From Escherichia coli (GTDB taxonomy: Bacteria > Pseudomonadota > Gammaproteobacteria > Enterobacterales > Enterobacteriaceae): a stretch of DNA of 64,000 bases. The stretch lies in assembly GCF_009931435.1 (NCBI RefSeq), contig NZ_CP043415.1. One strand, 5' to 3'. The notes beneath the pieces are model-generated. The model saw only the letters and a list, made by a program, of their open reading frames with translations, was not told where the DNA came from and ran no database searches. Shown piece after piece: positions 24,654-29,909 of the stretch; positions within the stretch are counted from its first letter, which is position 1; every line of letters begins with the position of its first letter. A program made the position numbers and the translations under genes.

Positions 24654-25087
24654 TTATTCAGCTGGCAGTGCTATGCGCCACGGAAGCAGTTCGCTGACCC
24701 GGTTGACCGGCCAGTCTGCTATGACGCCAGGCACATGGCGAAGGTAGCTTTCTGGATCCACGTCATTCAGTTTGCACGTCCCGATCAGGCTGTACAGTAG
24801 CGCTCCCCGCTCACCACCATGGTCAGAGCCGAAGAACAGGAAGTTTTTACGACCCAGACTGACCGCCCGCAGGGCATTTTCAGCGATGTTGTTGTCGATT
24901 TCCACCCAGCCATCGTTCGCATAGTACGTCAGTGCCGGCCACTGGTTAAGTGCGTACGCGAACGCCTTCGCCAACTCTGAGTGTCGCGACAGGGTCTTCA
25001 TCTTTTCACGCAACCAGCTTTCCAGGGATTTCAACAGCGGTTTCGTTTTTCGCTGACGTTCAGCAAGCCGCTGCTCTGCCTGCTGCC
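24654..25087 (-). pseudogene. IS66-family transposase (TnpC) C-terminal fragment
   Basis: ...ALRAVSLGRKNFLFFGSDHGGERGALLYSLIGTCKLNDVDPESYLRHV is the IS66 TnpC C-terminal signature; GTAAGCG-type repeats at 24543-24620. Confidence 0.7.
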
Positions 25088-26102
25088 GCCATGAAGCAGA
25101 TTAAAGAACTTCAGCGCCTGCTCGGCAAGAAAACGATGGAAAATGAACTCCTCAAAGAAGCCGTTGAATATGGACGGGCAAAAAAGTGGATAGCGCACGC
25201 GCCCTTATTGCCCGGGGATGGGGAGTAAGCTTAGTCAGCCGTTGTCTCCGGGTGTCGCGTGCGCAGTTGCACGTCATTCTCAGACGAACCGATGACTGGA
25301 TGGATGGCCGCCGCAGTCGTCACACTGATGATACGGATGTGCTTCTCCGTATACACCATGTTATCGGAGAGCTGCCCACGTATGGTTATCGTCGGGTATG
25401 GGCGCTGCTTCGCAGACAGGCAGAACTTGATGGTATGCCTGCGATCAATGCCAAACGTGTTTACCGGATCATGCGCCAGAATGCGCTGTTGCTTGAGCGA
25501 AAACCTGCTGTACCGCCATCGAAACGGGCACATACAGGCAGAGTGGCTGTGAAAGAAAGTAATCAGCGATGGTGCTCTGACGGGTTCGAGTTCCGCTGTG
25601 ATAACGGAGAAAAACTGCGAGTCACGTTCGCGCTGGACTGCTGTGACCGTGAGGCACTGCACTGGGCGGTCACTACGGGCGGCTTCAACAGTGAAACAGT
25701 ACAGGACGTCATGCTGGGAGCGGTGGAACGCCGCTTCGGCAACGAGCTTCCGGCGTCTCCAGTAGAGTGGCTGACGGATAATGGTTCATGCTACCGGGCT
25801 AATGAAACACGGCAGTTTGCCCGGATGTTGGGGCTTGAACCGAAGAGCACGGCGGTGCGGAGTCCGGAGAGTAACGGCATAGCAGAGAGCTTCGTGAAAA
25901 CGATAAAGCGTGACTACATCAGTGTCATGCCCAAACCAGACGGGTTAACGGCAGCAAAGAACCTTGCAGAGGCGTTCGAGCATTATAACGAATGGCATCC
26001 GCATAGTGCACTGGGTTATCGCTCGCCACGGGAATATCTACGGCAGCAAGCCAGTAATGGGTTAAGTGATAACAGGTGTCTGGAAATATAGGGGCAAATC
26101 CA
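25088..26102 (+). mobile_element. IS2, 5'-truncated (~1.0 kb of 1.33 kb)
   Basis: InsC fragment from [35 protein letters not shown]; full InsD; right end ...GGGGCAAATCCA at 26102. Confidence 0.85.
25186..26091 (+). CDS. insD: IS2 transposase InsD (orfB)
   Basis: 301 aa matching IS2 InsD ([38 protein letters not shown]...). Confidence 0.9.
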
Positions 26103-26239
26103 GTGTCCTTGACCCACGATATTCAGACTGTCGTTGTATCTTAAGTTGACGTTACCCGCTGACTTTTATGTGTTGAAAAACATCCATTTTAGATGTTTTT
26201 CAATCTTTTGATTAGAAATACATATCGTTAACATGCAAA

Positions 26240-26527
26240 TCAATAGACAGCATGAATATTGATGGTTGCACCACAGGCCTGAGCATATTTTGTTAAAGTT
26301 TTCATACTGGCTCCTAAAGGATTACTTTCCAAGCGACTGATGGCTGACGGGCGTAACCCCATTCGTTCAGCCAGAGCAGACTTTGTTAACCCCGCTTTTT
26401 CTCTCATTTCGTACAACATTTCTACCATCTCCAGTTCCTTATCGGCATCTTCATACCCTTTGACAGCTTCTGGAGTATTAAGCAGTTTTTGCTTTACCTG
26501 ACTGAACGGAACACCTTTTACTTTCAT
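26240..26527 (-). CDS. HTH (XRE-type) antitoxin, HigA-like
   Basis: 95 aa; HTH LTKSALAERMGLRPSAISRLE; immediately downstream of and abutting the toxin gene. Confidence 0.7.
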   Translation of the reverse strand: MKVKGVPFSQVKQKLLNTPEAVKGYEDADKELEMVEMLYEMREKAGLTKSALAERMGLRPSAISRLESNPLGASMKTLTKYAQACGATINIHAVY

Positions 26528-26838
26528 TATTTCATCTCCTTCAGGCGCATCCTAGCGATTTCAATAGCTTTCGTTGGTGTCTTTTGCGTCTTTTTCACAA
26601 ATGCATGCAGCAGATAGATTTCGTTTCCAGTTGCATAAGCGTACAGTGTCCTTGCGATATTTTTATCCCCAACTCTCAGTTCAAAAAGTCCTCCGCCAAT
26701 TACACGACTATGAGGCATTTTCATTTTGTTACCTTCTTGTTCCAGTCGTTCAATCAGCCTAGCCATGCGACCACGCAGATTATCTGGTAATTCAATCAAC
26801 TCATTCAGTGCGGCCGGGTGAGTAATTACATTAAACAT
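26527..26838 (-). CDS. RelE/ParE-superfamily toxin, HigB-like (toxin gene first)
   Basis: ~103 aa from MFNVITHPAALNEL...; small basic protein upstream of an HTH antitoxin (HigBA-type order); start chosen at the internal ATG. Confidence 0.65.
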   Translation of the reverse strand: MFNVITHPAALNELIELPDNLRGRMARLIERLEQEGNKMKMPHSRVIGGGLFELRVGDKNIARTLYAYATGNEIYLLHAFVKKTQKTPTKAIEIARMRLKEMK

Positions 26839-27221
26839 ATTATAGCCTCCGAAAGGATAAAATACACCAGAACAGGAAAATTGCGCAAATATCAAATTTC
26901 ACTGATAAATGAAATACATGTTAAGTACAGTTTTGATGCCGCATCAGCGGCATGGAAGGCGGCATTCCGTTGTTGCATATGGCACAGGAGTAAAACCGCC
27001 GAAGCCCGGCGTCAGCCGGTACTGATTGATAGATTTCACCTTACCCATCTCCAGCCCTGCTAAGCCATACCCGTTTTCAGCCATGATAGAGCTTCTGTGC
27101 GCGGTCGGAGTGGTCCCGACGAGGGTTTACCCGAAGTCGGGGCGTATCTCCGCGTTAGCGGGCCGTCAGGGCCGCTTACGAGCGTGTACTCAATACTTCC
27201 AGCCAGAAGACTGACAGCGAT

Positions 27222-27244
27222 GATAATGTAGTTACAACATTCAT
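27222..27244 (-). promoter_or_regulatory. Ter (Tus-binding) site, inverted relative to the second site
   Basis: Contains the GTTGTAAC core (rc of GTTACAAC at 27231-27238); ATGAATGTTGTAACTACAT. Confidence 0.5.
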
Positions 27245-27360
27245 AATTGAAAGCGACTCTGTTCCGGCCCTTCGGGCCGGGGCGGCGGCGCTTATTAATT
27301 ATGAGGAGGGGCTTTGTGGTTTCAGTTCTGCGCGGAACCGGGGTTTTTCCGGAGTCTATG

Positions 27361-27383
27361 TTTGAATGTTGTAACTAAATTGG
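27361..27383 (+). promoter_or_regulatory. Ter (Tus-binding) site
   Basis: GAATGTTGTAACTAAATTGG matches the Ter consensus ATGTTGTAACTAAA. Confidence 0.6.
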
Positions 27384-27399
27384 CTCCAATCGGGGCCCG

Positions 27400-27620
27400 C
27401 CGCTTGCGGTGGGAGGTGCATATCTGTCTGTCCACAGGACAGGCAGTGAATAGGTTTTTTTTTAAATGAATGTAATTAGGTAGTTTAAAGGAGATATAAA
27501 CAGGTGTTTAAAAGATACATTGCACCCTGTAAGGCTGACGGCTGGCGCTTTATGACATGAACGGTTGTAACCTTATGGGGAAGTCCCTTGCAGTTAAATG
27601 TGGATAAGCAAAATCCCCCG
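27400..27620 (-). other. oriR: oriR-type replication origin region of the RepFIIA replicon (approximate)
   Basis: DnaA box TTATCCACA (rc at 27599-27607) ~175 bp downstream of the repA1 stop; A/T-rich stretch; position as in R1/R100. Confidence 0.5.
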
Positions 27621-27782
27621 TCTGTGAGGCGTGTTTTGTATCAAAAACAGGGGGGACCGGATGCACCAGAAGGTGGATGATGAGGTTGTTTTTTGTATGT
27701 GGTGCTGATTTTTTGTGCACTGGCGGGCTTCAGGCGTGCGAATGCCTCCGGCGCGTGCCGGATTATTCTGATGAGGTCACTT

Positions 27783-28640
27783 TCAGGGGGAAGCTGTGGC
27801 CAGCCGGCTGTAATTACGGTTACGTGACAGAATCATGCGCTCCTTCACACGACGCTCCACTTCGCGTTTTACCGCCTCACGACTGGCAGTGAAACGTCCT
27901 TCCGCGATTTCACGCGTCAGCTGCCGTTTCACCAGGGTGACAATATCCTGACGTTCCCTGTTCGCATCACGACGCGCACGGGCACGTTTTATTCCACGGG
28001 ACTTAAGCTCTGTCTGGTAACTGCGGAAACGCTCACGCACAAAACGCCAGGCTTTCGCTATCAGTTCATCCATACCCAGGGTATCCAGCCCCTGCTTTTT
28101 GCGCTGTCTGTTTTCCCATTCAACACGACTGCGGCGCGCAGCTGCCACTGCATCCTCAGACACATCAAGGGCAGCAAACAGAGCCGGTGTGAACGTGATG
28201 TCGGTCGGAATGTAGCACCCGATAAGCGGGTCATATTCCGTCTGGTAGGTAATCAGTCCCAGCTCTGACAGGAACGTCAGGGCCCGGGTGGCACGGGTGA
28301 TGGAGAGTTTTCCTGCACCGGACTCTGTCGCCAGTCCGCACTCAATGGCCAGCGTGGTGATGGAGCACTGGACGCGGTTGGCCAGCGGATCATAGTGAAA
28401 ACAGAGCCCCTGCAGCAGCGCATCAATGGCCCGGCGACGCAGTACCGGTGGCATGCGCCGACGCAGACCACGCGAACGGGCATGCGCCACATGAATGGCG
28501 AAATCAAAACGGGAGGAGAAGCCCACCGCCTTTTCCATCAGTTTTTCGCAGAACTTCAGCGTTCCGGCACCTTTACGGGGTGTAAACACCGGATTCGGGT
28601 TCTTTACCTGGCGGTAATACGTTTGTTGAAGATCAGTCAC
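27783..28640 (-). CDS. repA1: RepFIIA replication initiator RepA1, GTG start
   Basis: 285 aa from GTG ([40 protein letters not shown]...), near-identical to R100/R1 RepA1. Confidence 0.92.
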
Positions 28641-28707: not shown

Positions 28708-28800
28708 ATAACTATACTCCCCGCATAGCTGAATTGTTGGCTATGCGGTTTTATGGGGCCCCGGTAATCTTCTCGTCGCCAAACATAGAAAGATTATCGG
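28700..28800 (+). ncRNA. copA: copA antisense RNA region (approximate bounds)
   Basis: Region antisense to the repA leader with the conserved GGGGCCC-containing stem; bounds approximate. Confidence 0.45.
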
Positions 28801-28948
28801 GGTTTTTGCTTTTCTGGCTCCTGTACATCCACATCAGAACCAGTTCCCTGCCACCTTATGGCGTGGCCAGCCATAAAATTCCTTAAACGATCAGCAATCT
28901 ATCACGCACACCAGAAACAGGCAAGAATGTGATGTCGCTACATTTCAG

Positions 28949-29480: not shown

Positions 29481-29687
29481 TTACTTCCGTGCTTCGTAGG
29501 CCAGAGTTACCTGCACCACTGTATTTCCCCTGTGAATATTCAGCTCACATAACCGTTCCCTGAATATCAGTGAAAAACACAACACCGTGGCGCACACGGC
29601 GAGCAACCCGATAAGGGCATATTTCGTCATAAACTTTGACCTCTCTGCAAGGAAGAGGCTACAATCAGTAGTGTTAAGGTACTTCAT
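29481..29687 (-). CDS. srnB: Hok/Gef-family type I toxin (SrnB-like)
   Basis: MKYLNTTDCSLFLAERSKFMTKYALIGLLAVCATVLCFSLIFRERLCELNIHRGNTVVQVTLAYEARK; hydrophobic Hok-type core from MTKYALIG. Confidence 0.8.
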   Translation of the reverse strand: MKYLNTTDCSLFLAERSKFMTKYALIGLLAVCATVLCFSLIFRERLCELNIHRGNTVVQVTLAYEARK

Positions 29688-29909
29688 GCAGGCCTCACGA
29701 GTTAATGGATTAACAAGTGGGGTCTTCGCATTTCTGGTACCTGCGTCTTGCCTGAACCAGAAAGGCTCAGACACCCGCCGCGATAATACCACATTCCCTG
29801 TTACTGACCATTCCCTCCATTTCCCGCTTTTCACTACAGAAAAGCCGGGGGCGGGGAAAACTTGCTTTTTCCCGTCCCCGGGGTTGGACAACTGAGCAAC
29901 GCGAAGGCG

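Follow-up and report, generated by a model that had tools for sequence, protein, structure and literature searches.

The two minus-strand genes at positions 26240–26838 of the window (the whole stretch of 64,000 nucleotides that was analysed) very probably form an intact type II toxin–antitoxin (TA) operon of the Gp49/DUF891 Tad-Ata class, a near-orthologue of the gp49/gp48 pair of phage N15 with an mRNase toxin, auto-repression and post-segregational killing. We assign this reading a probability of roughly 0.85, its activities being those expected from homologues. The genes and the signals associated with them are as follows.

26527–26838, minus strand: toxin gene, 103 aa plus stop (ATG 26838–26836, stop TAA 26529–26527), encoding a Gp49/DUF891 (Tad-type, HigB-like) RelE-fold protein.
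26240–26527, minus strand: antitoxin gene, 95 aa plus stop (ATG 26527–26525, stop 26242–26240), encoding an XRE/Cro-type helix-turn-helix (HTH) protein.
26846–26850, minus strand: Shine-Dalgarno (SD) sequence GGAGG, 7 nt 5' of the toxin ATG, invariant in N15 and pETEC_80.
26859–26888, minus strand: weak candidate promoter, TTGCGC (26888–26883), 18 nt spacer and TATTTT (26864–26859), assigned tentatively by eye.
26896–26915, minus strand: candidate operator, the inverted repeat ATTTCA-N8-TGAAAT, from the sequence and a three-way alignment.
26237–26920, minus strand: extent of the mobile cassette, delimited by DNA homology to N15 in the three-way alignment and starting approximately 80–90 nt 5' of the toxin ATG and ending 3 nt beyond the antitoxin stop.

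The span 26240–26838 consists of exactly these two ORFs. The toxin stop and the antitoxin start have one base in common (TAATG), and the ORF sizes, gene order and adjacent stop and start codons given in a preliminary description of this DNA agreed with the sequence; the strand of both ORFs, left unstated there, is minus. The toxin is basic (pI approximately 10), and the antitoxin carries its HTH at residues ~36–88, preceded by an N-terminal extension of about 35 residues. A 122-aa form of the toxin ORF starting at TTG was rejected, as it has no SD sequence, is not conserved in N15 and differs from the RefSeq start (ATG 26838). RefSeq holds identical proteins, encoded by about 80 E. coli plasmids, under the names “type II toxin-antitoxin system RelE/ParE family toxin” (WP_000483535.1) and “helix-turn-helix transcriptional regulator” (WP_000865085.1). 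The pair is thus already known, being annotated as a type II TA system in RefSeq and belonging to a validated family. A literature search on the WP accessions and on pVir68 returned nothing on the plasmid-borne pair.

The closest characterised relative is the gp49–gp48 pair of N15. The toxin was identical to gp49 at 92 of 102 positions (90%; both 103 aa) and the antitoxin to gp48 at 82 of 95 (86%; both 95 aa). Tblastn against phage genomes showed the toxin to be 89–92% identical to gene 49 of N15, phiKO2, PhiR46_1 and Klebsiella phage-plasmids. The N15 pair has the same toxin-first order, one-base overlap, SD sequence and upstream TTTCA-N8-TGAAA repeat as the window pair, whereas N15 is a linear plasmid-prophage, the window host is a circular IncF virulence plasmid, and the flanks outside the cassette are unrelated. 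In plasmids with other downstream neighbours, the match began only at window position 26236/26237. N15 gp49 is the founding member and name-giver of the Pfam family Gp49. Experimental validation as stabilising TA modules is described for both N15 gp49–gp48 and Tad-Ata of pAMI2 (Dziewit et al. 2007, J Bacteriol 189:1983, as cited in PMC2701414, PMC5906591, PMC3581621 and PMC2654960), and the Tad-Ata class is defined by a RelE-superfamily toxin of DUF891/COG4679 and an XRE-HTH antitoxin of COG5606 (Dziewit et al. 2007, as relayed in PMC2701414).

At the DNA level, the identity with the N15 cassette was only 77–78%. The proportion of synonymous differences between the window and N15 was near saturation (pS 0.68–0.80), against a pN of 0.07. 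The cassette is therefore not a recent transfer. Selection is given here as the proportions pN and pS, since a Jukes-Cantor dS was incomputable for the antitoxin against N15, its synonymous sites being saturated. Compared with pETEC_80, the toxin had a pN/pS of 0.07 and the antitoxin one of 0.02, and over the two homologous cassettes (N15 and pETEC_80) the ratio was 0.02–0.11 for both genes, indicating strong purifying selection. The gene pairing is also kept beyond this close group. In all four distant relatives examined (45–68% identity, unrelated flanks), an overlapping HTH_3 gene lies directly downstream of the toxin gene; one of them lies in a Buttiauxella chromosome, with hyc genes on one side and formate-dehydrogenase genes on the other, and the remaining three in a prophage-like contig, a metagenomic contig and a Thermodesulfobacteriota genome. 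The toxin-first, overlapping XRE-HTH arrangement was likewise found in N15 and pETEC_80. Separately, a 111-aa E. coli database protein (P0069, 13 member sequences) contains Gp49 and HTH Pfam matches in one chain, and seems to derive from this TA pair by deletion or fusion.

In the three-way alignment, N15 and pETEC_80 preserve the core TTTCA-N8-TGAAA of the upstream inverted repeat, with a spacer that varies. The repeat is the obvious candidate for an operator bound by the dimeric HTH antitoxin. A sigma-70 consensus scan of 26050–27150 yielded no promoter at threshold, and no convincing terminator was found 3' of the antitoxin gene. The hairpin at 26172–26204 was rejected as part of the cassette, because it is AT-rich, shows no T-run in the operon strand and has no counterpart in N15 or pETEC_80.

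The antitoxin matched Pfam HTH_3 over residues 38–88 (E 5.4e-12, 46 bits) together with related XRE-type HTH models, in line with the earlier assignment of the second ORF to the XRE-HTH proteins. NCBIfam returned generic HTH matches only, all of them sub-threshold, and the PDB sequence matches of the antitoxin were weak, namely HipB and the S. pneumoniae HigA chain 6AF3_B over residues 27–91. An N-terminal motif, AY-x-(D/E)-x-D/E, is common to the window antitoxin and the partner antitoxins of the distant relatives. To model the pair, toxin and antitoxin were fused in a single chain, toxin-(GGGGS)5-antitoxin, and run in AF2 with an alignment of eight true pairs plus unpaired toxins. The fused model had a pTM of 0.76 and a disordered linker (pLDDT <50), and its antitoxin N-terminal segment, which includes a two-residue strand, reached a pLDDT of 95–97. 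In S. pneumoniae HigBA, the N-terminal strands build an intermolecular sheet and helices alpha1–alpha2 of both proteins form the interface, leaving the active site uncovered (PMC7984235). Going by pTM and pLDDT, the model agrees with a packing of the window antitoxin N-terminus on the toxin in that manner.

Many of the positions at which the window proteins differ from those of N15 are in the N-terminal helices: 6 of the 11 in the toxin lie in residues 12–39 and 7 of the 13 in the antitoxin in residues 6–33. The helices harbouring them correspond to the TA interface of S. pneumoniae HigBA, and charge changes from window to N15 occur on both partners (I15/K and N20/E in the toxin, Q13/E and K14/E in the antitoxin). 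These clustered differences may represent co-variation that sets partner specificity.

The plasmid surroundings of the pair comprise the following features.

26936–27780, minus strand: IncFII-family backbone between repA and the cassette, holding oriR.
26997–27011, minus strand: terminator-like hairpin inside the oriR flank.
28725–28811: CopA RNA.
29620–29776: Sok RNA.
25090–26102, plus strand: IS2 remnant with an intact right terminal repeat that ends at 26102, which is 137 nt beyond the stop of the antitoxin gene.

The source plasmid is a Vir-type IncF plasmid with cnf2 and cdtABC type III, typed IncFIA/FIB/FIC; MOB-suite assigned the identical plasmid an IncFIC replicon, a type within the IncFII/RepFIIA family. 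The repA gene occupies 27783–28640, and an exact DnaA box at 27599–27607 (minus strand), about 180 nt downstream of repA, marks oriR. With the CopA and Sok RNAs located, both the replicon and the adjacent hok/sok system are confirmed. The preliminary description had placed the pair between an IS2 end and oriR, beside a RepFIIA replicon, and had also named hok; the IS2 repeat end at 26102, the DnaA box and the two RNAs bear out this context. The backbone from repA through oriR to ~26936 is conserved and common to more than 5000 plasmids. Past ~26936, typical IncFII plasmids have a CPBP-protease gene and pemI/pemK, the latter being carried there by thousands of plasmids. Because pemI/pemK lies past the same oriR flank in those plasmids, the Gp49-type cassette occupies the classical TA slot of the IncFII replicon. 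We found the pair in approximately 79 PLSDB plasmids and in 81 of 5426 complete E. coli genomes, and it was contiguous with the IncFII oriR flank in all of the ~79 plasmids and in those genomes.

The oriR flank ends at the same point (~26936) in thousands of plasmids, followed either by pemI/pemK with or without the CPBP protease or by the Gp49/HTH pair. This suggests that the junction is a replicon-proximal swap slot for unrelated addiction modules. In pETEC_80 an extra ~28 bp is present at the junction. A 46-aa ORF at 26944–27084 (minus strand; hypothetical protein WP_001315588.1) lies in the oriR flank, just upstream of the hairpin at 26997–27011 and the TA promoter region, and may be a spurious call.

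The position in the pemIK slot and the stabilising activity of the N15 pair together fit a role in plasmid maintenance, and by analogy the pair is an ordinary plasmid-maintenance cassette. The kinship with phage-plasmids nevertheless raises other roles. Type II TA systems are reported to act in phage defence. We considered it unlikely that the operon, although a functional TA system, has been selected for abortive infection against phages or for anti-addiction against the gp49 toxins of N15-like phage-plasmids. The closest relatives do reside in N15, phiKO2 and Klebsiella phage-plasmids, many of the window–N15 differences fall in the interface N-terminal helices, and type II systems have been reported in phage defence (PMC10532202). 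However, PADLOC recognised no known defence system in the pair, giving only generic HTH matches and a partial, C-terminal match to NsnC (E 1.3e-7, 53 residues); the cassette is always in the replicon-proximal slot of pemIK, and the N15 pair has been characterised as stabilising.

A slightly less improbable, and still speculative, extension concerns contact between the two systems. With 86–90% protein identity, the window and N15 antitoxins might cross-neutralise, so that the IncF plasmid would be an anti-addiction element against an N15-like phage-plasmid or the reverse; or the interface differences might insulate the systems from each other. If cross-neutralisation occurs, the IncF plasmid could enable its cell to shed an N15-like phage-plasmid or to be resistant to one, and the roles could also be swapped. 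Equally tentative, and separate from this, is the reading of the site past the IncFII oriR flank as a TA swap slot.

The toxin matched Pfam PF05973 (Gp49, DUF891) with an E-value of 7.6e-28 and 96.9 bits over profile positions 2–90 of 90 (gathering cut-off 23.9 bits), and PHROG 2523 with an E-value of 2.4e-41; a specific NCBIfam model was not found. The best PDB sequence matches were S. pneumoniae HigB (6AF3_A, E 8.6e-6) and M. tuberculosis (Mtb) HigB1. An AF2 model built on a 42-homologue alignment had a pLDDT of 88.9, a pTM of 0.82 and the topology E-H-H-E-E-E-E-H (beta-alpha-alpha-beta4-alpha), with the antiparallel four-stranded sheet packed on N-terminal helices that is typical of the RelE fold. 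Foldseek of this model against the PDB gave the matches listed here, with a probability of 1.00 for HigB1, HigB, RelE, YoeB and YafQ.

HigB1/TAC toxin, 7NBU_Y: E 9.5e-6, TM 0.79, top rank.
S. pneumoniae HigB, 6AF4: E ~1e-5 to 1e-4, TM 0.72.
RelE, YoeB and YafQ: E ~1e-3 and weaker, TM below the HigB1/HigB matches.
Canonical E. coli/Shigella HigB (5ycl, 5ifg, 6kml): E 0.08–0.16, TM 0.54–0.59.
ParE proteins: E 0.04–0.13, TM 0.40–0.50.

The preliminary description had assigned the first ORF to the RelE/ParE superfamily and named the absence of such a fold as grounds for giving up the assignment. The fold was looked for and is present, and the Gp49 match, the model pLDDT of 88.9 and the TM values of 0.72–0.79 to HigB1/HigB all uphold the superfamily. 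Membership as such would also suit a gyrase poison resembling ParE, in a TA system of the same type with another target: RelE and ParE have one fold and one Pfam clan, the RefSeq name reads 'RelE/ParE family', and ParE proteins are among the Foldseek matches. Yet this seems very improbable, as the ParE matches fall far below the HigB/RelE/YoeB group (E 1e-5 to 1e-3, TM 0.56–0.79), the window toxin retains the basic residues and the Phe that HigB-TAC and S. pneumoniae HigB require to cleave RNA, and RNase activity has been the finding for the members of the Gp49 family tested to date (PMC5906591; PMC9098466).

The amino acids suggested to be catalytic in HigB-TAC are K58, E66, R68, N73, R77, F93, K95, Q98 and K99 (PMC9098466). 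We mapped them by PDB sequence alignment (chain index + 6 = native numbering, checked at the K95A position), and the equivalents in the window toxin are R45, E53, R55, N60, R63 (with a one-residue shift), F80, K82, Q85 and K86. In the 42-homologue alignment, E53, R55, R63, F80 and K82 were invariant. Two Gp49-family proteins of Mtb, HigB2 and HigB3, are non-toxic and are without K58, N73, F93 and K99 (PMC9098466); all four of these positions have counterparts in the window toxin. The retention of the HigB-TAC catalytic positions, including those lost in the non-toxic HigB2 and HigB3, thus supports the prediction that the toxin is an active ribosome-dependent mRNase. Least probable of all is a decayed hitch-hiker cassette with an inactive toxin and the HTH protein kept as a plain regulator, for even with non-toxic HigB2 and HigB3 in the same family (PMC9098466) and a surrounding mosaic with many IS elements, neither ORF is truncated and both are collinear with N15, pN/pS amounts to 0.02–0.11 with synonymous sites near saturation against N15, all proposed catalytic positions are kept, and the SD sequence and the upstream inverted repeat are conserved.

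The preliminary description had called the pair HigB/HigA-like, in the gene order of HigBA-type modules. This holds for the toxin-first order and the HigBA-like architecture; the toxin does not, however, belong to the Rts1 or E. coli HigB sequence families. A Pfam search of the toxin at E<=0.01 gave PF05973 only, with no HigB-family match, and a PDB sequence search with the toxin retrieved neither Rts1-type nor E. coli HigB. Canonical HigBA (Rts1/Proteus vulgaris; E. coli K-12) is, like the window pair, toxin-first and combines a RelE-fold mRNase toxin with an HTH antitoxin, but its HigB is of a different sequence family and only weakly alike in structure. The reversed gene order has led to Gp49-domain toxins being grouped with HigB, although they have little similarity to Rts1, V. 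cholerae or E. coli HigB, and some validated members are only ~20% identical to each other (PMC5906591).

The best structural matches, Mtb HigB1 (the TAC toxin, Rv1955; PDB 7NBU/7AWK) and S. pneumoniae HigBA (6AF3/6AF4), with TM 0.72–0.79, have the long C-terminal helix and the catalytic residues in common with the window toxin, and both chains of 6AF3 were matched in sequence by the two window proteins. By contrast, the identities to HigB1 and S. pneumoniae HigBA were only 24–26%, TAC has a SecB-like chaperone gene that the window pair is without, and the C-terminal helix of the window toxin is a few residues shorter and so has no residue equivalent to HigB-TAC R117. Tad-Ata of Paracoccus aminophilus pAMI2 and the COG4679–COG5606 class (Dziewit 2007 and Makarova 2009), including the tad-ata/higBA of IncC plasmids, correspond in that a DUF891/Gp49 toxin precedes an XRE-HTH antitoxin, both carried by plasmids and serving stabilisation, a likeness that follows from the family definition. 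PemI/PemK (ParD, Kis/Kid) of R100/R1-type IncFII plasmids have the same position relative to the replicon and presumably the same stabilising role; their proteins, with a MazF-fold toxin encoded after the antitoxin, are unrelated to the window pair, which makes them a positional analogue and not a homologue. On sequence grounds, the pair would be better named a Gp49/Tad-Ata-class (HigBA-like) module.

By analogy with its homologues, the operon would act as follows. Both genes would be expressed on one message from a weak promoter upstream of 26838, with translation coupled by the TAATG overlap. The RelE-fold toxin would enter the ribosomal A site and cleave mRNA, leading to translation arrest. 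The ~35 N-terminal residues of the antitoxin would bind the N-terminal helices of the toxin and thereby neutralise it, while the dimerised antitoxin would repress its own operon through the XRE HTH at the conserved TTTCA-N8-TGAAA repeat. Upon plasmid loss, the labile antitoxin would decay and the freed toxin would stop growth (post-segregational killing), and the pair would in this way add to hok/sok in retaining the Vir-type IncF plasmid. A related pair on the SXT element gave no measurable stabilisation of SXT (PMC2654960), and the stabilising contribution of the window pair may be redundant, given several replicons and hok/sok.

The pair has little significance beyond annotation, as one more maintenance module on a Vir-type (cnf2, cdt-III) IncF virulence plasmid. 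It does indicate that the replicon-proximal IncFII slot can carry a TA cassette of the phage N15 type in place of pemIK, and the precise name (Gp49/Tad-Ata, orthologue of N15 gp49/gp48) and clear cassette boundaries are useful for studies of cross-talk between IncF and N15-like elements.

The region on the antitoxin side of the cassette is composed of IS fragments and mosaic DNA. A left terminal repeat (IRL) of IS2 was sought ~1.33 kb upstream of 26102 and not found; the left ~300 bp of IS2 is replaced by an IS66-family fragment. The C-terminal fragment of an IS66-family transposase (ORF 24654–25034, minus strand) borders directly on what remains of IS2 orfA at ~25040–25090, and the sole IRL-like sequence of IS2 in the window lies at 10769–10790 (minus strand), distant and inverted. 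Identical plasmids annotate the region as 'IS3 family transposase' and 'IS66 family transposase'. Between the IS2 end and the antitoxin stop lie 137 bp (26103–26239) that are themselves mosaic. Their first 60–66 nt can also be found in ~260 plasmids (Shigella pINV, ETEC and Salmonella), a few of which annotate an IS2/IS3-family transposase there, and the remainder, including the AT-rich hairpin with a 13-bp stem at 26172–26204, occurs only in the ~15 closest plasmids. The relative pVPS18EC0467-2 has no IS2 at this site, and the TA pair is intact both there and in the window; just past the pair, pVPS18EC0467-2 carries fimbrial-chaperone and winged-HTH genes. Within the queried stretch 14000–38999, the cnf2 and cdtABC type III match came from homology to CP063740.1 at 14000–24000.
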